Source: Gemmatimonadota bacterium
GTDB taxonomy: Bacteria > Gemmatimonadota > Gemmatimonadetes > Gemmatimonadales > GWC2-71-9
Direction: 5' to 3'
DNA: 30,285 nucleotides
Assembly: GCA_041491785.1 (NCBI GenBank)
Contig: JBGPVQ010000001.1
Coordinates: forward strand, 1-30,285
Positions 1,374 to 11,860 of this stretch are shown one piece after another; position 1 is the stretch's first letter; every line of letters starts with the position of its first letter. The notes beneath the pieces were generated by a model. It saw only the letters and a list, made by a program, of their open reading frames with translations, searched no databases and was not told where the DNA came from. The translations under genes were made by a program, and so were the position numbers.

Positions 1374-1702
1374 GTGCGGCGGATGGGCACCACTTTCTCG
1401 ATTTCAGCGTGCACCACGCCCTCGCCGTCCACCAGATCGACTCGATAGGTGCGATCGACCCGCTCCGTTTCCGCCAGCGCCGCGCGAATATGGTCGGGCT
1501 TTCCCGGGTCGAGGCGGAGGGTCGCGGAGAGGGTGTCGCGACCAGGCCGCCGGAACCGGATGCTGGCGGCCTTGTCCCACACGACGTAACTGGGGCCGAG
1601 CCGGTGGATTAGCATGAACATGAAGAAAGGATCAACCGCGGCGTACATGCTGCCGCCGAAAATGGTTCCGACGTAGTTACGGGTCCGCCACGACTCGCTC
1701 AC
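1370..1702 (-). CDS. DUF4442 / hot-dog (thioesterase-fold) protein, 110 aa, apparently missing an N-terminal segment
   Basis: WRTRNYVGTIFGGSMYAAVDP and YVVWDKAASIRFRRPG motifs; the GTG start overlaps the upstream TGA (GTGA coupling at 1699-1702). Confidence 0.75.
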   Translation of the reverse strand: MSESWRTRNYVGTIFGGSMYAAVDPFFMFMLIHRLGPSYVVWDKAASIRFRRPGRDTLSATLRLDPGKPDHIRAALAETERVDRTYRVDLVDGEGVVHAEIEKVVPIRRT

Positions 1703-2982
1703 GGCGCGCGGACAAGCTGCCCACCCTTCATCACCAATCGCAGGTTCCGGAGGTCGGAAATCTTCTGGGTGGGATCGCCCTCGACGGCGATCAGGTCCGC
1801 CAGGAGGGCGGGCCGGATCTGGCCAAGCCGGTCGTCGAGATGGAAGATCCTGGCGTTGCCGGCGGTTGCGGCCTTGAGCACGTCGAGGGGCGACATGCCG
1901 TACTCCACCATCAGCTCGAGCTCCCGGGCGTTATCGCCGTGAGAAAAGACCCCGACGTCGCTCCCGGCACAGATTACCACCTTGGCGGCGAGGGCGCGCT
2001 TGAAGCTGGCCTTCTTCTCGGTGATCTCCGCCGGCTCCGGATCGGCTCCCTTCTTCCAGCCGCGATACTGGCGCACCGCTTCGCCGGCGGAGAGGGTGGG
2101 ACAGAGGGCTACGCCGCGCTGGGCCATGAGGCGGAAGACGTCCGCGGTGCCCGCATCGCCGTGCTCGATGGTCTCGACGCCCGCGAGTACCGCGCGGCGC
2201 ATCCCTTCGGGCGTGCTGGCGTGCGCGACAACCGGGCGCCCGCTGCTCCGCGCCGTCTCGACGATGCGGGTCAGTTCCTCGAGCAGGAACGTCGGGCGGG
2301 TTTCCCCGGCAGGGCCCCACCGGTAATCGGCGTAGACCTTGACCCAGTCCGCACCCTTGGAGATCTGGCTCCGGGTCACCTGGGTCACGGCGTCGAGACC
2401 GCTGGCCTCCTCGGCGCCCTGCGGGATGTCCCAGCGCGGATCGAAGCCGCGGGGCCCGTAGCTCCCGGTGGCCACGATGGCGCGGGTGACCACCAGCATC
2501 CGCGGACCCGGTACGATGCCTTGCTCGATGGCCTGTTTGAGTCCGACGTCCGCTTCCCCGGCCCCCTCGCTTCCCAGATCGCGGACCGTGGTGAACCCCG
2601 CCTCGAGGGTCCGGCGGGCGTGGTTCACCGCGCGGGCGACCCGGAGCGCCAGCGGCTCGTGGAGCACCTGGTCGTTCCAGCTGGTTTCGTCGTACGGGTG
2701 CAGCAGCAGGTGAGAGTGGCCTTCGATGAGGCCCGGCAGGAGCGTCATTCCCTTGAGCGCGATGCGGCGCGCGTCGGTCGGGGTGGCGGCCTCGAGTGCC
2801 GGGCCCACCCCCAGAATTCGATCACCGCGCACCAGGACGGACCAGCCGGGATGCACAGTGATGCCGTCGAAGACGCGGTCGGGAAGCAGGAGGATGACCG
2901 GTCCGTCGGCGCCCTGCGCTGCGGCGAGGCCGGGCAGTCCTAGCCAGGCGGCGGACAGGAGCGCACGAAGCCATCGCCGCAT
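1699..2982 (-). CDS. Secreted metal-dependent amidohydrolase, Xaa-Pro dipeptidase/prolidase-like subgroup (427 aa)
   Basis: ATG 2982 with GGAGG RBS and signal peptide (MRRWLRALLSAAWLGLPGLAAA-Q); full ligand set EGHSHL (HxH), VKVY (Lys), VAHAS, IEHGD, GSDVG. The ORF-track start at 3333 is an over-extension. Confidence 0.9.
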   Translation of the reverse strand: MRRWLRALLSAAWLGLPGLAAAQGADGPVILLLPDRVFDGITVHPGWSVLVRGDRILGVGPALEAATPTDARRIALKGMTLLPGLIEGHSHLLLHPYDETSWNDQVLHEPLALRVARAVNHARRTLEAGFTTVRDLGSEGAGEADVGLKQAIEQGIVPGPRMLVVTRAIVATGSYGPRGFDPRWDIPQGAEEASGLDAVTQVTRSQISKGADWVKVYADYRWGPAGETRPTFLLEELTRIVETARSSGRPVVAHASTPEGMRRAVLAGVETIEHGDAGTADVFRLMAQRGVALCPTLSAGEAVRQYRGWKKGADPEPAEITEKKASFKRALAAKVVICAGSDVGVFSHGDNARELELMVEYGMSPLDVLKAATAGNARIFHLDDRLGQIRPALLADLIAVEGDPTQKISDLRNLRLVMKGGQLVRAP

Positions 2983-3008
2983 CGGTACCCTCCGGAAAAT
3001 CGAATGGA

Positions 3009-3893
3009 TCACAGTGGCGGGGCGGAGTCTTCTGCTACCAGCGCGATCCGATCGCCGGAGGGGCTCACCGCGAGACGGGAGATCTTCTGGAGCCCCGGCT
3101 CGCCGAAGCGGGCGATTTCGGCCCAGGCGGTGTCTCCCGGCCGCCAGCGGAGGACCCGGTTGCCGGCCGCCGAGAGCAGCTCCCCGGCAGGCGTCCAGGC
3201 GAAGAACTCGCTCCCTTCGACGAGCCGGGCGAGCGGCACGCTGACGCCGGTTACCGGATCGAGGGAACGGACCCAGACGCCGGAGGAGTCGTGCTGGAGG
3301 TAACTCACCGCGTGGCGCCCCGGAACCGGCCACAGCGACCGGCCGATGTCCGAGGCCATTACGTCCGCGGTGCCGCGCGACACCACGGCGCGGCGGAGCG
3401 TCGCGGGGCTGCCAAGAACAAAGATGAAAACGGTATCGGGGGCGAGCCAGGTGTGGTAACCGACCGGCTTGATGGTATCGAGGAGCGGGCCCACCGGAGT
3501 TCCTTCGAGCGTGAAGGCCCAGAGGCGCTGGGTGGAGTCGCGCTCCACGCGGATGACCGACAATCGCCGACCGTCGGGCATGACCGTGGGAGAATATTCG
3601 CTCTCCGCCGTCCGGGTCACCTGGGTGGCCGTACGCGAGGCGAAGTCATACCGATAGATGTCGGTTTGTCCGTCCCGCTGCGAGGTGTAGTAGAGGCCCC
3701 GCCCGTCGGGAGTGAAGAAGGGTTGATTGTCGTACCCCGCCCGAGCGGTGAGGTTGGCCGCGGGGCCGACGGTGAGTGTCGCCCCGTTTCGGATCAGCGG
3801 CGCCACGTAGATGTCCGTGCCCGGAGGCGCCTGGGCCGCCAGCGGGGGCAGGAGCGCGAGCGCCGCGGCGAGGGGAAGCCGGGAGGGTATCAT
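3009..3893 (-). CDS. Secreted TolB/PD40 (WD40-like) beta-propeller protein (294 aa)
   Basis: ATG 3893, signal peptide MIPSRLPLAAALALLPPLAAQA; PD40-like repeats YDNQPFFTPDG, SEYSPTVMPDG, SRLAVSPSGD. Confidence 0.8.
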   Translation of the reverse strand: MIPSRLPLAAALALLPPLAAQAPPGTDIYVAPLIRNGATLTVGPAANLTARAGYDNQPFFTPDGRGLYYTSQRDGQTDIYRYDFASRTATQVTRTAESEYSPTVMPDGRRLSVIRVERDSTQRLWAFTLEGTPVGPLLDTIKPVGYHTWLAPDTVFIFVLGSPATLRRAVVSRGTADVMASDIGRSLWPVPGRHAVSYLQHDSSGVWVRSLDPVTGVSVPLARLVEGSEFFAWTPAGELLSAAGNRVLRWRPGDTAWAEIARFGEPGLQKISRLAVSPSGDRIALVAEDSAPPL

Positions 3894-3899
3894 CGCTCC

Positions 3900-3905
3900 A
3901 TTATA
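3900..3905 (-). promoter_or_regulatory. Perfect -10 box (TATAAT) 6 nt upstream of the TolB-like ATG; leaderless-promoter geometry
   Basis: Minus strand reads GGGGG-TATAAT-GGAGCG-ATG; the hexamer includes the TAA stop of the upstream ArsC/Spx gene. Confidence 0.45.
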
Positions 3906-4266
3906 CCCCCCGGCCACCCGCCTTGCCCGACCAGTCGCGCCAGATCGATTCCGCCGGGCCGATGGTAAGCTGATGCTGGAATCGGACCAGCGGCATGCGG
4001 AGGAGCAGCGGTTCTGCGACCAGACGCTCGAGCCAGTGGTCGTCGGAGTAGACCGCCGCACCGAGGCCGAGGTCGCTGAACCGCTTCGAGTTGCGGTCGA
4101 CCAGGGCGTGGGCCCCGAATTTCTGGGAAAATCGGATGAGCTCCCCATGCGAGGCTCCCCGTTCGGCCAGGTCGACGAAGTGAACCTGGACTCGACGCTC
4201 GGCGAAGAAGCGGAGCGCGGCGCGGGTATCGGCGCTCTTTCTGATGCCGAAGACCTGGACCTCCAC
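3901..4266 (-). CDS. ArsC/Spx/MgsR (thioredoxin-fold) family protein with no cysteine (121 aa)
   Basis: GTG start; QVFGIRKSADTRAALRFFAERRVQVHFVDL N-terminus and EPLLLRMPLV motif typical of the family; no Cys in the translation. Confidence 0.8.
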   Translation of the reverse strand: MEVQVFGIRKSADTRAALRFFAERRVQVHFVDLAERGASHGELIRFSQKFGAHALVDRNSKRFSDLGLGAAVYSDDHWLERLVAEPLLLRMPLVRFQHQLTIGPAESIWRDWSGKAGGRGV

Positions 4267-4298
4267 GACGAATTCAACCCCTGGCGGGAGTGGCGCGT

Positions 4299-4391: not shown

Positions 4392-6044
4392 ATGCGCCTG
4401 ACCCCGGCGGCACGCGCCCTCATCCCGGCGGCCGCCCTCCTCGTTTCGACCACTCCCTCGCTCGTGGCGCAATCCGACACCTGGGCACTCATCAACGCGC
4501 GGATCCAGACCGTAACGCACGGAGTGATCGAGAAGGGCACCATCATTATTCGGAAGGGACTGATCGAAGCGGTCGGTCCGGCGGTCACCGTCCCCCCGGA
4601 TGCCCGCGTCCTCGACCTGTCGGGGAAGACGGTCACCGCGGGCTTGGTGGATCTCACCTCCTCGCTCGGGCTGGCGGCTCCTCCCGCCGGAGGCGGCGGT
4701 GGGCCCGGGGGCGGGGGGGGAGGAGCGGCCGCACCGGCTCCCGGCGCCCCCCGGCCGGGGCTCGAGCCGGATCGGGACGTGACCCGCGAACTCAAGGTGG
4801 CCCCCGGGGACGTCAAGCCGGTGCGCGATCTGGGCGTCACCTCGGTGCTGGTGGCGCCGTCGCGGGGACTGTTCCGCGGCCGGTCCGCGCTGATTCCGCT
4901 CCGGGACAGCGTCGATGCGAAGGATGTCATCCGCGCCCCGGTCGCCGAGCACATCGGTTACCAGGGCGCGCAGGGTGACTACCCCGCCACGCTGCTGGGG
5001 GTGATCGCCTACCAGCGGCAGTCGCTTTACAACGCGCAACGGCAGGGAGTTCTGCTCGACCGGTACAAAGCCAATCCGCGCGGCATGGAGCGGCCCGAGA
5101 ACGATGCGGGCCTGGATGCCCTGGTTCCGGTGGTGCGGGGGCAACTTCCCGCGTTCATCGACGCGAACAACGAAAACGAGATCCGGCGCGCGGACCGGCT
5201 TGCGAAAGAGTTCAAGCTCAACGCCACGATCGTGGGGGCCACCGAAGGGTGGCAGGCGCTGGACGCGCTCGCGGGGCATGGAGTGGTGGTGTCGGTCAAC
5301 TTCCCGCAGCCGACCTCGGTGACCGGGTGGTCGTATCGACTGAGCCAGCGCCGCCCCCTCGGCGATAGCGCGGCTTCGGCCCGGGAAGGGCAGAAGCTGA
5401 TCGAAGGCAATGCCGCTGCGCTCCACAAGGCCGGCGTCAAGTTCGCGCTGGCCTCGGGGGGAACCCGGGACTTCGTGATCAACGTGCGAAAAGTGGTGGC
5501 CGCGGGCCTTCCGGCGGACGTCGCACTTCAGGCGGTGACCATCCGCGCCGCCGAGATGGCCGGCGCGGGAGAAATGCTGGGAAGCGTCGAGACCGGCAAG
5601 ATCGCGAACCTGGTGGTGTCGAGCGGCGACATCCTCAGCGATTCCGCCAAGGTGAGTGCGGTGTTTGTCGACGGGATCCGGTACGAGGTCGCGCCGCCTC
5701 CGGCGGCACGGGCTGGCGGCAGCGGACCCGGCGGGCCGGCGGCGCAAATCGGCGGGAGCTGGGCCATGACGCTCACTTCCCCGCAGGGCCCGCTGGATCT
5801 CACCGTCACGATCACCCAGAGCGGAGCGTCGTTCGGCGGAACCATGGTCAGCCAATTCGGGAGCCAGGAGATCGGCGACGGCCAGATTTCCGGCCGCACC
5901 GTGACGTGGACCACTACCCTCAGTTTCGGCGGCCAGACCGCCACCCTCAACTACCGCGCCGAAGTGGACGGCAACCGGATGACCGGCTCCGCCGACCTCG
6001 GCAGCTTCGGCAGCGGCACCTTTACCGCGGAGCGGAAGCCATGA
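4392..6044 (+). CDS. Secreted amidohydrolase-fold protein lacking metal ligands, with a C-terminal all-beta domain (550 aa)
   Basis: GGAGG RBS, signal peptide; N-terminal LINARIQT..IEKGTIIIRKGLI and C-terminal GSVETGKIANLVV amidohydrolase beta-sandwich motifs; the HxH position reads GLVDLTSSL. Confidence 0.85.
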   Translation: MRLTPAARALIPAAALLVSTTPSLVAQSDTWALINARIQTVTHGVIEKGTIIIRKGLIEAVGPAVTVPPDARVLDLSGKTVTAGLVDLTSSLGLAAPPAGGGGGPGGGGGGAAAPAPGAPRPGLEPDRDVTRELKVAPGDVKPVRDLGVTSVLVAPSRGLFRGRSALIPLRDSVDAKDVIRAPVAEHIGYQGAQGDYPATLLGVIAYQRQSLYNAQRQGVLLDRYKANPRGMERPENDAGLDALVPVVRGQLPAFIDANNENEIRRADRLAKEFKLNATIVGATEGWQALDALAGHGVVVSVNFPQPTSVTGWSYRLSQRRPLGDSAASAREGQKLIEGNAAALHKAGVKFALASGGTRDFVINVRKVVAAGLPADVALQAVTIRAAEMAGAGEMLGSVETGKIANLVVSSGDILSDSAKVSAVFVDGIRYEVAPPPAARAGGSGPGGPAAQIGGSWAMTLTSPQGPLDLTVTITQSGASFGGTMVSQFGSQEIGDGQISGRTVTWTTTLSFGGQTATLNYRAEVDGNRMTGSADLGSFGSGTFTAERKP

Positions 6045-7420
6045 TGCTTACCGCGCTACTTGCGCTCGCTGCGCAGAATCCTCCCGCAGCGCAGGGAGAC
6101 ACCACTCGCCGGCCGGCCGCGATGCCGGTGTACGTGGCGCCGGTTCCCCCGGCCGCCACCCTGGTGGCCATCACCAACGCCACCATTCTCACCGCGAGTC
6201 ACGGGACGATCGAAAAGGGAACCATCCTCATCCGGAACGGGAAGATCGCCGCGATCGGGAAGGACCTCGTTGTTCCCGCGGGCGCCCAGGTCATCGACGG
6301 CAACGGCAAGTACGTCATGCCCGGCATCATCGACGCCCACTCCCACAGCGCGAGCGAGGCGATCAACGAGGGAACCCGCTCGATCACCGCGCAGGTCCGG
6401 ATCGAGGACGTCCTCAAGGAGGACGCCATCAGTCTGTATCGGCAGCTCGCCGGCGGGGTTACCAGCGCCAACGTGCTGCACGGCTCGGCCAATACGATCG
6501 GCGGCCAGAATGCGGTGATCAAGCTGCGCTGGGGGCTTCCGGCGGACTCGCTGCTCTTCGCGGGGGCACCCCCGGGAATCAAGTTCGCCCTGGGCGAAAA
6601 CGTGCGACAGACCAACGGCCCGCAGATCCCGGGGCGGCCGCAGCGCTATCCGCGGACCCGGATGGGAGTGGAGGAGCTGCTCCGCGACGCCTTCACCCGG
6701 GCCAGGGAGTACCAGGCCGGGTGGAAGGCCTACGACGATGCCAAGAAGTCCCTCAAGAAGGGGCAGGCGGAGCCGCTCCCGCCGGCGCGGGACCTCCAGC
6801 TCGACGCCCTGGTCGAGGTGCTGGAAGGAAAACGCCTGGTCCACGCGCACTCCTATCGTTCGGATGAAATCCTGATGCTCCTCAAGGTGGCAAAGGATTT
6901 CGGATTCCGGATTGCCAGTCTGCAGCACGTACTCGAGGGCTACAAGATCGCCGACGAAATCGCGGCCGCGGGCACCGGAGCGTCGACCTTCGCCGACAAC
7001 TGGGCCTACAAGCTCGAGGCCTTCGATGCGATCCCCTTCAACGCCGCGCTCATGGCGGAGCGCGGGGTCAAGGTCTCCGTCAATTCCGACTCCGACGAGC
7101 GGGCCCGCCGGCTGTACCAGGAGGCGGCCAAGGCGATGAAGTACGGCGGGGCCTCCGAGGAAGAGGCCATCCGGATGATCACGCTGAACGCCGCCTGGCA
7201 GTTGGGCATCGACAAGCTGACCGGCTCCATCGACGTCGGGAAAGACGCCGACATCGCGATTTTCAGCGGCCACCCCTTCGCGCCGGCCAGCCGGGTCGAA
7301 ATGACCCTGATCGACGGCCGGGTGTTCTTCGACCGCACCAAGGCCCCGACGCTCGAGAGTCTGATCGAGCAGCTCAAGCGGCGGCCGCGAGCCAACACCA
7401 CCAGTGGAGGTGCCCTGTGA
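6041..7420 (+). CDS. Secreted amidohydrolase with intact metal-binding motifs (459 aa)
   Basis: ATG 6041 overlaps the upstream TGA (ATGA); PGIIDAHSHS (HxH), IKFALGEN (Lys), VHAHSYR, LQHVLEG, NSDS; GSIDVGKDADI. Confidence 0.9.
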   Translation: MMLTALLALAAQNPPAAQGDTTRRPAAMPVYVAPVPPAATLVAITNATILTASHGTIEKGTILIRNGKIAAIGKDLVVPAGAQVIDGNGKYVMPGIIDAHSHSASEAINEGTRSITAQVRIEDVLKEDAISLYRQLAGGVTSANVLHGSANTIGGQNAVIKLRWGLPADSLLFAGAPPGIKFALGENVRQTNGPQIPGRPQRYPRTRMGVEELLRDAFTRAREYQAGWKAYDDAKKSLKKGQAEPLPPARDLQLDALVEVLEGKRLVHAHSYRSDEILMLLKVAKDFGFRIASLQHVLEGYKIADEIAAAGTGASTFADNWAYKLEAFDAIPFNAALMAERGVKVSVNSDSDERARRLYQEAAKAMKYGGASEEEAIRMITLNAAWQLGIDKLTGSIDVGKDADIAIFSGHPFAPASRVEMTLIDGRVFFDRTKAPTLESLIEQLKRRPRANTTSGGAL

Positions 7421-8718
7421 TCCGGCGCATCCTGTCGTCCGCGTTCGGGCTGATCGCGCTCGGCGCCCCGCTCGCCGCCCAGGGCGCGCCCGCCGCGCCG
7501 GTGCCGAGCCGCTCCGCCGTGTATGCGATCACCAACGCCACCATCGTTCCGGTGGTCGGTCCGAAGGTATCCGGCGGCACCGTCGTGATCCGCGCCGGGA
7601 AGATCGAAGCCGCCGGCGCGGGCGTCGCCACGCCGGCGGGCGCCACCGTGATTGACGGCACCGGCCTCTTCGTCTATCCCGGCATGATCGATTCCGGAGA
7701 CCGCATGGGCCTGGTTGAAATCGGCTCGGTTCCGGGCGGCCAGGACACCCAGGAACTGGGACAATACAATCCGCAGGACGCCGTGCTCACCGCGGTCAAT
7801 CCGAGCTCGGTCCACATCCCGATCACTCGCGCCAACGGCGTCACCAGCGCGGTCACCTCCGCCGAGGGCGGAATGATCCAGGGCTGGGCGGCGTTGATCG
7901 ACCTGGCCGGGTGGACCCCCGATGAGATGGCGGAGAACGGACGACTCGCGATGGTGATGACCTTTCCGCGGGTCGGCGGCGGTGGGCGCCGCGGCGGCTT
8001 CCGGGGGGGGCAGGCGCAGGGCGATGCGGCGGAAACCCAGAATCGCCAGGTGCGAGAGTTGTATGACTATCTGCGGAACGCCAGGGCCTACAACGAGCGT
8101 CCCAACCCGGTGCCGCAGAACCTCTCCTATGCGGCCCTCGGCCCGGCGCTCCGAGGAGAATCGCCGGTCATCTTCGACGTGCAGACTGAGGGGCAGATCC
8201 GGGGTGTCCTCGCGCTGGCGGATACCTTCAAGCTCAAGGTGGTGCTTCGGGGGGCCAACGAAGCGTGGATGCTGGCCGATACTCTGGCCGCCCGGAAAAT
8301 CCCGGTGGTCGTGGGCCCGATGACGGCGGTCCCCGAGGGGGACGCGCCCTACGACGCGATCTACGCCAATCCCGGGACACTGGCGAAGGCGGGGGTGCAG
8401 ATCGCCTTTCAAACCAACGACGGCGGAGAGGGCGACGCCCGGAATCTGCCGTACAACGCGGCTTTGGCCGAAGCGTACGGGCTCGACCCCGATGAGGCAC
8501 TCCGGGCGGTGACCATCAATCCCGCCGGGATCTGGGGCGTCGCCGACCGGCTGGGCAGCATCGAGCCCGGCAAGGTGGCCAATCTCTTCACTACCACCGG
8601 CGATCCGCTGGACGTCCGCACCCAGGTGCGCCACGTGTTCATTCGCGGCCAACTGCAACCCTGGGACGACCGGCACACACTGGAATACCAGAAGTGGCGG
8701 AGCCGGCCCAAGCCCTGA
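7417..8718 (+). CDS. Secreted amidohydrolase-fold protein lacking metal ligands (433 aa)
   Basis: GTGA coupling to the upstream stop, signal peptide; ITNATIV, PGMIDSGDRMG (no HxH), GSIEPGKVANL. Confidence 0.85.
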   Translation: MIRRILSSAFGLIALGAPLAAQGAPAAPVPSRSAVYAITNATIVPVVGPKVSGGTVVIRAGKIEAAGAGVATPAGATVIDGTGLFVYPGMIDSGDRMGLVEIGSVPGGQDTQELGQYNPQDAVLTAVNPSSVHIPITRANGVTSAVTSAEGGMIQGWAALIDLAGWTPDEMAENGRLAMVMTFPRVGGGGRRGGFRGGQAQGDAAETQNRQVRELYDYLRNARAYNERPNPVPQNLSYAALGPALRGESPVIFDVQTEGQIRGVLALADTFKLKVVLRGANEAWMLADTLAARKIPVVVGPMTAVPEGDAPYDAIYANPGTLAKAGVQIAFQTNDGGEGDARNLPYNAALAEAYGLDPDEALRAVTINPAGIWGVADRLGSIEPGKVANLFTTTGDPLDVRTQVRHVFIRGQLQPWDDRHTLEYQKWRSRPKP

Positions 8719-8735: not shown

Positions 8736-10853
8736 ATGCCTTCGCATAATCGTCTCCCTGCCCTGCTGCTGTCTCTCACGCTGCTAGCCCCGGCTGCAGC
8801 GCTTCGCGCCCAGCAGCCGGACCGCTTCACCGGACACTGGGTGGGGGCCATCAGGCTGCCCGGCCAAGAGCTCGGGTTCGATGTGGATCTCGCGCGGGGC
8901 GCCGGGGGCTGGACCGGGGACATTTCGATACCGGCCCAAAACCTCAAAGACCTCCCGCTCACCGGCCTCGCGATCTCGGGAGACTCCATCCGGTTCTCGA
9001 TTGGTGGCATCCCGGGCGATCCGACGTTCGTGGGTGCGCTCGCGCCCGACCGGAAGACCGCCGCCGGGGCATTCTCGCAGGGCGGCGGAACCTTCCCGTT
9101 CACCATGCACGGAGCCCTTGCCCCTGCCGACGCGGCGCGGGAGGCGCTACGCGGCTTCGACCGCTTCGTGGACTCCGCGATGGCGGCGTGGAAAGTGGTC
9201 GGGCTCGGCCTCGGCATCGTGGTGGACGGCCAAGTGGTGTATGTCCGGGGCCATGGATTTCGGGACCTGGAACGGAAGCTTCCCGCGACCGAGAGAACGC
9301 TCTTTGCGATCGGGAGCTCGAGCAAGGCGTTCACCGTCTACGCGCTCGGCACGCTGGTAGACCAGGGCAAGCTCGAATGGGATAAGCCGGTGATCACCTA
9401 CATGCCGGAGTTCCGGCTCTACGACCCCGCGGCCACACTCCGGATTTCGCCGCGTGACCTGGTCACCCACCGCTCCGGGCTGCCGCGGCACGATCTGGTC
9501 TGGTACAACAACTTCACGTCGACCCGGGAGGACCTGATCAGCCGTATCGCGTACCTCCCGCCGAACAAGGATCTGCGGGAGACATTTCAGTACAACAACC
9601 TGATGTTCCTCACCGCCGGAGTGCTCGCCGGGCGGATCATGAACAGCAGCTGGGAAGACGCCATCCGCCGGCTGGTCTTCCAGCCGCTCGGGATGAACAG
9701 CAGCAATTTCTCGGTGGCCGAATCGCAGAAGACCGCCGACTGGTCGCGGGGGTACGAGGTGCGGAAGGACACCATCCGGGCGATGCCGTTCCGGAATATC
9801 GATCTGATCGGTCCCGCCGGCTCGATCAACTCGAATGTTGCAGACATGGTCAAGTGGATCGGAATGCACCTGGCGGGAGGAGTGGTGGACGGCAAGCAGG
9901 TCATCGCCCGCACCACCCTCAACGACATGTACGCCCCGCACATGCCGATCGGCGGAATGCCGAGCGACAAGGATCTCGGCGCGGCCAACTACGGCATGGG
10001 GTGGTTCCTGACCAGCTATCGCGGGCACTACCTGGTGCAGCACGGCGGGAATATCGACGGCTTTTCCGCGATGGTCGCCCTCATGCCACAGGATCGAATC
10101 GGGATCGTGGTTCTGAGCAACCAGAACGGTGCGGCCCTGCCGGCGCTGATCCGGAACCATGCGATGGATCGCATCCTGAGCCTCCCGCCCCGCGATTGGA
10201 ACGCCGAGGCCCTGGCCGCGGCGAAGCGGGCCGAGACGGCGGGCCGGGAGGCCGAGAAGAAAAAGATGTCGGTGCGGGTGACCGGCACCCAGCCGTCGCA
10301 TCCGCTCGCCGAATACGCGGCCGAATACGCCCACCCGGGGTACGGTACCCTCACCGTGGCGCCGGATGGGGATCACCTGGTGGCCACCTACCATTCGATC
10401 AGCACTCCGCTGGAACACTGGCACTACGACGTGTTCAACGGGCTCCGCAACCCGGCCGATCCCACCTTCGAGGACATGAAGTACAACTTCCGCTCGAACA
10501 TGAAGGGGGACATTGATGCCGTGGCGGCGCCGTTCGAGCCGAGCGTGGATCCGATCGTGTTCGTCCGGCAGCCCGACAAGCGTCTGGTGGACCCCGCGTT
10601 CCTGCAGGGGCTCACCGGGCGCTACGCCCTGTCCAACGACACCGCAAACGTGATCCTGCAGGGAGCCCGCCTCGTCGTGGTGTTGCGCGGCCAGCCGCCG
10701 TCCACCCTGGAGCCGGACCGGCGCACCGAGTTCAACCTGAAGGGGCTCGCGGGCTACAGCGTGGAGTTCGTCCTGGACGCCCAGGGAGCGGTCACCGAGC
10801 TGCGGCTCAAACAACCCAGCGGCGTGTTTGCCGCCAAGAGGGTGGCGCCGTGA
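8736..10853 (+). CDS. Secreted serine hydrolase, class C beta-lactamase/D-aminopeptidase family, with an N-terminal beta domain and C-terminal DUF3471-like domains (705 aa)
   Basis: ATG 8736 with GAGG RBS; SxxK (IGSSSKAF), YxN (FQYNN), HGG (VQHGGNIDGF), LVTHRSGL; signal peptide. Confidence 0.9.
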   Translation: MPSHNRLPALLLSLTLLAPAAALRAQQPDRFTGHWVGAIRLPGQELGFDVDLARGAGGWTGDISIPAQNLKDLPLTGLAISGDSIRFSIGGIPGDPTFVGALAPDRKTAAGAFSQGGGTFPFTMHGALAPADAAREALRGFDRFVDSAMAAWKVVGLGLGIVVDGQVVYVRGHGFRDLERKLPATERTLFAIGSSSKAFTVYALGTLVDQGKLEWDKPVITYMPEFRLYDPAATLRISPRDLVTHRSGLPRHDLVWYNNFTSTREDLISRIAYLPPNKDLRETFQYNNLMFLTAGVLAGRIMNSSWEDAIRRLVFQPLGMNSSNFSVAESQKTADWSRGYEVRKDTIRAMPFRNIDLIGPAGSINSNVADMVKWIGMHLAGGVVDGKQVIARTTLNDMYAPHMPIGGMPSDKDLGAANYGMGWFLTSYRGHYLVQHGGNIDGFSAMVALMPQDRIGIVVLSNQNGAALPALIRNHAMDRILSLPPRDWNAEALAAAKRAETAGREAEKKKMSVRVTGTQPSHPLAEYAAEYAHPGYGTLTVAPDGDHLVATYHSISTPLEHWHYDVFNGLRNPADPTFEDMKYNFRSNMKGDIDAVAAPFEPSVDPIVFVRQPDKRLVDPAFLQGLTGRYALSNDTANVILQGARLVVVLRGQPPSTLEPDRRTEFNLKGLAGYSVEFVLDAQGAVTELRLKQPSGVFAAKRVAP

Positions 10854-11860
10854 TGCCGTGCCGCGTCGCGTTGCTCGGCGCTGTCCTCGCGACGGCCGGG
10901 CCGGGCCAGAGTCCACCGCCGCTTCCCCCGGTCGAATGGCGCGGGCTCATCGGCGAATACGGCAGGGACACGACGACGCGCGTCATGATCCTCGAACAGG
11001 ATGGCCGCCTGCTTGCGCGCTTCGATTCGGCGCCATCCGTCGGCTTGCGCCGAACTGGGAAGGACCTTTACCGCGGACCGGCCGCGGGGGCCCACCCCGA
11101 GGTGACGTTCCGATTCCGCCGACGCGCCGACGGACGGGCCGCGGCGGTCGCGGTCGGCGATTCGACCTGGCCGCACCGCGCCTTGGGACCGGAGGACGGC
11201 TCGGTGTTCCGCATCGTTCCGGTCCGGCCCGTCGAGGACCTCAGGAGGGAGGCGCTGGCGGCTACGCCGCCGGCCGAGCCGGGAGACTTTCGAGCGAGCG
11301 ACCTGGTCGAACTGGTGCGGCTCGATCGCACAATCAAGCTCGACATCCGATACGCCGGGACGGGCAACTTTCTCGGCAGGCCGCTGTACGGCCAGGCCCG
11401 GGCCTTTCTGCAGCGGCCCGCGGCGGAGGCACTGCTGGCCGCCCACCGTCGGCTCGGTGCGCGCGGCTACGGCCTGCTGATCCACGACGGGTACCGGCCC
11501 TGGTACATCACCAAGATGTTCTGGGACGCCACGCCACCGGCCCAGCATGAATTCGTCGCCAATCCCGCCACCGGCTCCCGGCATAACCGGGGTTGCGCGG
11601 TGGATCTCTCGCTCTACGACCTCAAGACCGGGCGCCCGGTCGAGATGCCCGGCAGCTACGACGAGTTCTCCCGCCGGTCGTATCCCAGCTACCCGGGAGG
11701 AACCTCGCGGCAACGGTGGTACCGCGAGCTCCTCCGCAGCGCGATGGAGGCGGAGGGATTCGCGGTTTTCACGTCGGAATGGTGGCACTTCGACTTCAAG
11801 GACTGGAAATCGTATCGCATCGGCAACACGCCGTTCGAGAGGCTGAACGGTCCCGCCTGA
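10850..11860 (+). CDS. ddpX: Secreted D-alanyl-D-alanine dipeptidase (M15D, VanX/DdpX family) with an N-terminal beta-domain extension (336 aa)
   Basis: DIRYA, DGYRP, SRHNRGCAVD (SxHxxGxAxD) and EWWHF (ExxH) zinc motifs; GTGA coupling to the upstream stop. Confidence 0.9.
   Translation: MMPCRVALLGAVLATAGPGQSPPPLPPVEWRGLIGEYGRDTTTRVMILEQDGRLLARFDSAPSVGLRRTGKDLYRGPAAGAHPEVTFRFRRRADGRAAAVAVGDSTWPHRALGPEDGSVFRIVPVRPVEDLRREALAATPPAEPGDFRASDLVELVRLDRTIKLDIRYAGTGNFLGRPLYGQARAFLQRPAAEALLAAHRRLGARGYGLLIHDGYRPWYITKMFWDATPPAQHEFVANPATGSRHNRGCAVDLSLYDLKTGRPVEMPGSYDEFSRRSYPSYPGGTSRQRWYRELLRSAMEAEGFAVFTSEWWHFDFKDWKSYRIGNTPFERLNGPA

Follow-up and report, generated by a model that had tools for sequence, protein, structure and literature searches.

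An exported trio of amidohydrolase-fold proteins from Gemmatimonadota and other phyla as a probable hetero-oligomer with one catalytic and two metal-site-less subunits

We describe here three overlapping genes, A, B and C, that lie on the forward strand of a 30,285-nucleotide stretch of a Gemmatimonadota bacterium genome (assembly GCA_041491785.1, contig JBGPVQ010000001.1, positions 1 to 30,285; hereafter the window) and that encode three diverged paralogs of the amidohydrolase superfamily. B retains a complete binuclear metal site while A and C have lost theirs. We consider that the three proteins are, with a probability of about three in four, subunits of one exported hetero-oligomeric amidohydrolase, probably of 1:1:1 composition, in which B holds the sole binuclear centre. 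The amidohydrolase superfamily is a model for the assignment of enzyme function, and its members are regarded as homo-oligomers, their activity being read from a five-residue ligand signature. The superfamily is well studied and the principle of an enzyme partnered by pseudoenzyme paralogs is known, while the trio itself is undescribed. An initial annotation of the window, made from the letters of the DNA, had proposed a hetero-oligomer of one catalytic chain and two dead paralogs, and this proposal is supported by gene order, natural fusions, the distribution of ligands over the three classes and structural models of the B+C pair and of an A-B fusion.

The open reading frames (ORFs) span 4392-6044 (A, 550 amino acids, aa), 6041-7420 (B, 459 aa) and 7417-8718 (C, 433 aa), in a window whose G+C content is about 68% throughout and whose proteins have homologues named Gemmatimonadales. 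Consecutive genes share a start/stop overlap of four nucleotides (nt): the ATG of B lies on the TGA of A (ATGA, 6041-6044), with a GGAG 9 nt upstream, and the GTG of C lies on the TGA of B (GTGA, 7417-7420), with a GGAGG 7 nt upstream. Both the coordinates and the junction sequences match those that the initial annotation had given. Among 13 split loci of other phyla, the 4-nt overlap is found at the A-B junction in 5, the remaining gaps there ranging from -1 to +59 nt, and at the B-C junction in 9. All three proteins had been taken to be exported. This applies to A and C, whose N-terminal signal peptides appear typical from their sequence, and holds in part for B, whose signal peptide (MMLTALLALAAQ) is short and has an n-region without charge, though B orthologues in other genomes have ordinary ones. 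In the split loci of other phyla, each protein bears its own signal peptide.

Within A, the signal peptide (about aa 1-27) is followed by a domain resembling the Protein Data Bank (PDB) entry 3OOQ (about aa 28-435), a Gly/Pro-rich linker and a C-terminal beta-barrel (aa 455-550, 5754-6041 on the forward strand). AlphaFold2 (AF2) predicts eight strands for this barrel, with a predicted local distance difference test score (pLDDT) of 86.6, and Foldseek matches it to generic small barrels (Cap15, FABP and designed barrels) at E of about 1e-3. The barrel is optional in the family, as it occurs in some A proteins and also in long A-B linkers and is absent from loci L020 and L010. A BLASTP comparison with the N-terminal region of the serine hydrolase encoded downstream of C gave E = 1.4, so that the two are not shown by sequence to be the same domain.

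A, B and C all score above the curated threshold of Pfam Amidohydro_1, B over its full length (4e-18) and A (3.4e-7) and C over their C-terminal third only. The Pfam matches, the 3OOQ alignments and the fold of the fusion model described below place the three proteins in the amidohydrolase superfamily (PF01979/PF07969), whose fold is a (beta/alpha)8 barrel with a composite beta domain built from both termini. The best PDB match of all three is 3OOQ, which aligns over nearly the whole domain of B (7.5e-53), C (4.5e-32) and A (1.1e-17, aa 47-430), the next match being at 1e-13 or weaker; by sequence and structure, 3OOQ is thus the closest subgroup for A, B and C. All three stay below the NCBIfam equivalog cut-offs. 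Against the NCBIfam model XaaProDiPepCaul (NF051886), B scores 57 bits where the cut-off is 500, which leaves it outside the Xaa-Pro dipeptidase / Lys-Arg carboxypeptidase family. The near-full-length alignments with 3OOQ bear out the claim that the flanking paralogs keep the amidohydrolase fold.

The ligands of this fold are the HxH motif after strand 1, a Lys after strand 4, a His after strand 5, a His after strand 6 and an Asp after strand 8. In B the binuclear set is complete, with H100 and H102 (DAHSH), K181 (IKFALGEN), H270 (VHAHS), H296 (LQHVLE) and D350 (NSDSD). At the same positions A reads DLTSS, a His replacing the Lys, FIDAN, VGATE and ASGG, and C reads DSGDR, a Val replacing the Lys, IFDVQ, RGANE and TNDGG. 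All the motifs on which the initial annotation had relied are present in the translations, and its reading of C needs a single correction: an Asp near strand 8 is kept in the C of the window (TNDGG), and it is not conserved in the C class. After aligning the three proteins with 3OOQ and with one another, we extended the census to domains of many phyla (92 of class B, 62 of A and 166 of C). Each ligand is kept in 90-91 of the 92 B domains and the ligands are almost never kept in A or C, where the Lys, the strand-5 His and the strand-6 His are absent throughout. Competence of the middle gene and loss in the flanking ones are therefore traits of the whole classes, as had been claimed for the three proteins of the window. 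The residues that replace the ligands vary, and no invariant or near-invariant His or Cys is found anywhere in the A or C class alignments. The former result makes it unlikely that A and C have a conserved ligand pocket where the metal site was, and the latter that they have a conserved alternative metal site. As judged from sequence, B belongs fully to the superfamily, in its 3OOQ-like subgroup; A and C belong to it by fold and fail at the ligands.

The catalytic/non-catalytic pairing suspected from the window is conserved across phyla. An A-like match at E <= 1e-20 is found in 107 of 150 Gemmatimonadota genomes, and the order A-B-C is present in all of the 20 Gemmatimonadota loci fetched from those matches. 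In 15 of these 20 loci a single ORF of about 1000 aa encodes A and B and a separate C comes after it, in 4 the genes are separate like those of the window, and in one (L011) A, B and C share one open frame of 1376 aa. A wider scan, in which each GTDB species was represented by one genome, yielded at least 558 confirmed matches to B-specific peptide patterns. The best 80 of these loci were examined and all are A-B-C units or variants: 54 are of the type 'A B C', 16 'AB C', 1 'ABC' and 2 'BC A', the remaining 7 being other, mostly cut by contig ends. In the permuted type, found in Acidobacteriota (L076 7662-12268 and L083 7836-12070), a B-C fusion precedes a separate A, and therefore the position of A relative to B-C is not absolutely fixed. 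Order and fusions span at least eight phyla of soil, water and sediment bacteria. The taxa include Gemmatimonadota, Acidobacteriota (Pyrinomonadaceae, Terriglobia, Vicinamibacterales, Bryobacteraceae, Holophagae and Chloracidobacterium), Dormibacterota, Krumholzibacteriia, Zixibacteria, Fimbriimonadales, Ignavibacteria and Bacteroidota.

When 1.84 billion representatives were searched exhaustively with C, 1205 proteins were returned at E <= 1e-30, with named members from Vicinamibacterales, Acidobacteriota, Armatimonadota and Planctomycetales. The best 150 comprise about 46 A-B-C fusions (1260-1570 aa), about 43 B-C fusions and 57 free C proteins. In one B-C fusion (P0247) the junction is almost linker-free, B reaching aa 889 and C starting at aa 883. 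The frames are intact in all of about 100 loci and in the 150 representatives. Three classes in a fixed order that are frequently fused do not correspond to a homo-oligomer of identical active chains, the arrangement expected of a 3OOQ-like protein. The genome of the window also holds a second B-like gene (L101 4979-6469, at the end of contig C160; 283 bits to B) and a C-like gene that has lost HxH (HANAG; L102 2-1078, at the start of contig C433). The two genes are probably the halves of one further B-C pair that lacks A and was broken up in the assembly.

A maximum-likelihood tree of 63 domains puts each of A, B and C on one side of a strong branch (supports 98/99, 98/98 and 97/83). The metal site was therefore lost long ago, in two paralog lines, and not in a series of recent events. 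Branches are shortest in B and much longer in A and C. The ratio of nonsynonymous to synonymous substitution rates (dN/dS) against the nearest orthologous locus (L021) is 0.20 for A, 0.18 for B and 0.18 for C, rough values with dS near saturation. They are quoted for this nearest pair only, as distant orthologues are saturated (proportion of synonymous differences, pS, up to 0.75). From these sequence comparisons, A, B and C are all under purifying selection.

An interface between a dead and a live subunit was also predicted when the multimer check suggested for the trio was run for B and C. The predicted complex scored 0.88, and the best of three controls 0.00; of 80 solved complexes 58 attain the score mark that we used, and of 110 mismatched pairs 2 do so, counts that are approximate here as our own small alignments were used. 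At least 64% of the contacts are common to the runs and the partner pLDDT is at least 87. In the model the interface is pseudo-twofold: the two chains face each other with the loops that follow their strands 6-8, and the C-terminal tails are swapped. The B residues at this interface would be 301-302, 319-333 and 352-369, including those just past the ligand D350. The C tail (aa 419-431) is conserved over 166 diverse C domains (L423 0.75, Y424 0.60, Y427 0.66, R430 0.81). In the model it lies close to the strand-6 ligand H296 of B, on B residues that are themselves strongly conserved (Y301 0.95, K302 0.83, D329 0.82, P332 0.82). The reciprocal tail of B, which would cover the dead site of C, is not conserved (<= 0.37). 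Such an asymmetry of the tails would be expected if nothing but the contact near the live site were of importance. For A and B, a natural A-B fusion (L010, 887 aa) was modelled with AF2 from a 76-row alignment of fusions, giving a compact model with a mean pLDDT of 90.1 and a predicted template modelling score (pTM) of 0.90, with disorder limited to the 20-residue linker. In a two-domain chain, a pTM of this value means that the relative placement of the domains in the model is confident. Foldseek aligns the fusion model to 3OOQ with a target-normalised TM-score of 0.91 and a root-mean-square deviation of 2.0 A.

The simplest history of the trio would be that a homo-oligomeric 3OOQ-like ancestor duplicated twice and that two of the copies lost their metal sites. 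The dead copies would still have been needed for assembly, and the arrangement would have become fixed as a 1:1:1 hetero-oligomer, which the different lineages would then encode as three, two or one polypeptide. B would do the chemistry, and A and C, which keep the (beta/alpha)8 fold without the metal site, would be kept since only a mixed oligomer gives the assembled enzyme. C, and probably A too, may form neighbouring walls of the active-site entrance of B, with the tail of C helping to shape or close it. C probably helps to form this entrance because its conserved tail lies, in the model, on conserved B residues by the strand-6 His. The initial annotation had offered substrate binding, specificity and scaffolding as roles of the dead subunits. 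Substrate binding at the former metal pocket does not agree with residues there that are not conserved, and a scaffold or active-site-completing role fits better. A stronger version, which we put forward only tentatively and with odds clearly below even, is that the complex is an obligate heterotrimer, or a higher 1:1:1 assembly, in which the C tail, together with a counterpart in A, completes or gates the active site of B. B alone would then be inactive and the substrates would be environmental or cell-wall amides, e.g. peptides with D-amino acids, beyond the reach of single-chain amidohydrolases.

Several points weigh against the hetero-oligomer. The predicted B-C interface is not enriched in conserved residues (B 0.52 against 0.57 for the rest, C 0.48 against 0.50 for the rest), the exceptions being the asymmetry of the tails and a small number of charged residues. 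Since 3OOQ is a dihedral homo-oligomer, the B-C model may only replay the homomeric interface of the family. Also, the calibration of the complex predictions holds only roughly with our shallow alignments, pTM is only an indirect measure of domain packing, dS close to saturation makes the dN/dS values only rough, and the signal peptide of B in the window is atypical.

Among the other explanations, the one that survives best is a functional link without a stable complex, which we regard as unlikely. In this case A and C would stay free in the periplasm as binding or chaperone-like proteins, capturing substrate or handing it over to B, or would act in other steps of the same pathway. The separate export of the split proteins, each with its own signal peptide, and an interface that does not stand out in conservation fit this possibility; a fusion denotes a functional link and not necessarily a fixed interface, and the optional small beta-barrel of A has a fold that is often used for ligand binding. 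However, A and C show no conservation where the ligands once were and no conserved pocket is evident there, some B-C fusions leave hardly any linker (P0247), and both the pTM of the A-B fusion and the advantage of B+C over its controls speak against it. Less probable still, and in our opinion improbable, is that A and C are active through other catalytic residues or metal ligands and that the operon encodes three hydrolases in series. Some A clades (L001-L016) do retain one His of HxH and the strand-8 Asp (DAHADLG, TTD), the C of the window has its Asp near strand 8, and purifying selection acts on both proteins; but the lack of any near-invariant His or Cys, the class-wide disappearance of the Lys and of the strand-5 and strand-6 His, and branches much longer than those of B all argue against such activity. 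Finally, that A and C are decaying, functionless duplicates left side by side by an accidental tandem duplication would explain the loss of all catalytic ligands, as in a decaying copy, but is refuted in practice by the conservation data, namely intact frames, ancient classes, dN/dS of about 0.2 and an order with fusions kept in at least eight phyla.

Turning from the hetero-oligomer to the genes around it, the trio of the window belongs to a chain of five exported hydrolase-fold genes. A beta-lactamase-fold serine hydrolase with a DUF3471 domain (8736-10853, forward strand; PF00144 4.8e-64, PF11954 1.8e-20) probably starts at ATG 8736, 17 nt past the stop of C. Its own stop is overlapped by the GTG of a VanX-like D-Ala-D-Ala dipeptidase of the Peptidase_M15 family (10850-11860, forward strand; PF01427 4.8e-33), the overlap being again of the GTGA type (10850-10853). 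Both were considered as core parts of the system and rejected, as they adjoin the trio in 0 of 80 and 1 of 80 other loci, respectively, and they are regarded here as context. As for substrate clues from conserved neighbours, no neighbour family is present in more than 12 of the 80 loci, and the recurring neighbours are unrelated (MacB/FtsX permease, hybrid sensor kinase, AsmA-like, VWA, BON and LpxD). A protein from a Planctomycetales metagenome-assembled genome (P0277, 1258 aa) joins B, C and a beta-lactamase-fold domain (PF00144, aa 916-1241) in one chain, and the order of its domains is the gene order B, C, serine hydrolase of the window. The second B-like gene of the same genome follows a gene for an M16 (insulinase-type) peptidase of 932 aa (L101 2227-5022). 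On the reverse strand, upstream of A, lies a divergent pair (1699-3333 and 3009-4277) in which a PD40/TolB-like beta-propeller protein is followed by a different amidohydrolase. The latter has an intact HSH motif (Pfam Amidohydro_1 1.3e-33) and is an additional exported hydrolase nearby. Its start is probably the internal signal-peptide Met near 2985, which would make the two genes overlap slightly.

The operon neighbours, P0277 and the M16 peptidase give hints of peptides as substrates, perhaps with D-amino acids. This is only a local clue because neither neighbour is conserved beside the trio elsewhere. Our most likely guess, by analogy with remote characterised relatives and given the peptidase genes in the operon, would be that the bond cleaved is an amide, in a small peptide or in an N-acyl amino acid. 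The entry 3OOQ itself, 'amidohydrolase from Thermotoga maritima MSB8', is a structural-genomics deposit without an assigned function and gives no substrate clue.

The trio defines a large branch, present across phyla, where two in three of the encoded 'amidohydrolases' are without metal-binding ligands and are yet conserved, and where current annotations such as 'amidohydrolase family protein' or 'imidazolonepropionase-like' are misleading. If our interpretation is true, it would provide a clean natural case in which a homomer became a fixed heteromer and lost sites on the way, and in which split forms can be compared with fused ones, and thousands of annotations would be corrected. It would also account for possibly inactive or insoluble protein when single genes are expressed in structural-genomics or screening projects. 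It would, furthermore, single out an abundant and unstudied exported hydrolase of soil Acidobacteriota and Gemmatimonadota with a possible part in the turnover of organic nitrogen. If the obligate, gated trio were true, it would represent a new and widespread quaternary type for a textbook enzyme superfamily.

In the open-access literature we found no publication on an active amidohydrolase that stands between two inactive paralogs, although one may have been missed. In that literature 3OOQ appears only as a docking benchmark, and a review of pseudopeptidases mentions neither amidohydrolases nor M38 (PMC11266112). The initial annotation had stated that no characterised example was known. This stands for the trio and does not stand for inactive subunits of this fold in general, as in the Pseudomonas aeruginosa aspartate transcarbamoylase dodecamer a pseudo-dihydroorotase, inactive and of amidohydrolase fold, is an obligatory structural subunit (PMC7053772). 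Like that complex, the trio has inactive amidohydrolase-fold proteins kept beside an enzyme, their binding being predicted only. In contrast, the pseudo-dihydroorotase partners an unrelated enzyme in the cytoplasm, whereas the dead subunits of the trio would partner their own active paralog, comprise two classes, are exported and belong to a different branch of the superfamily.

The closest structure, 3OOQ, is a dihedral homo-oligomer (bioRxiv 10.64898/2026.08.06.736029) and shares the ligand set of B, with DAHSH, the Lys in LKMAFGEN, HAH, EH and CDH. It differs in being one protein with ligands in every chain, while the trio consists of three diverged paralogs with the site in one. Among relatives whose reaction is known, the nearest are the cog1228 enzymes, which hydrolyse a C-terminal amide bond: the Lys/Arg carboxypeptidase Cc2672 (3MTW), the prolidases Sgx9260b and Sgx9260c (3N2C, 3FEQ) and the ochratoxin-type amidohydrolases (8IHQ). 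They have the same binuclear HxH/K/H/H/D site as B, with a similarity that is weak and partial (E of about 1e-10, TM-score of about 0.6). Unlike the trio, they are homo-oligomers for which pseudo-subunits have not been described. A dead paralog that co-assembles with its active relative is known from the plant pair PDX1.2/PDX1.3 (bioRxiv 10.1101/717082). In that pair, which differs in fold and biology, the dead subunit is a regulator of tunable stoichiometry, whereas the fixed order and the fusions of the trio point to a fixed 1:1:1 composition.

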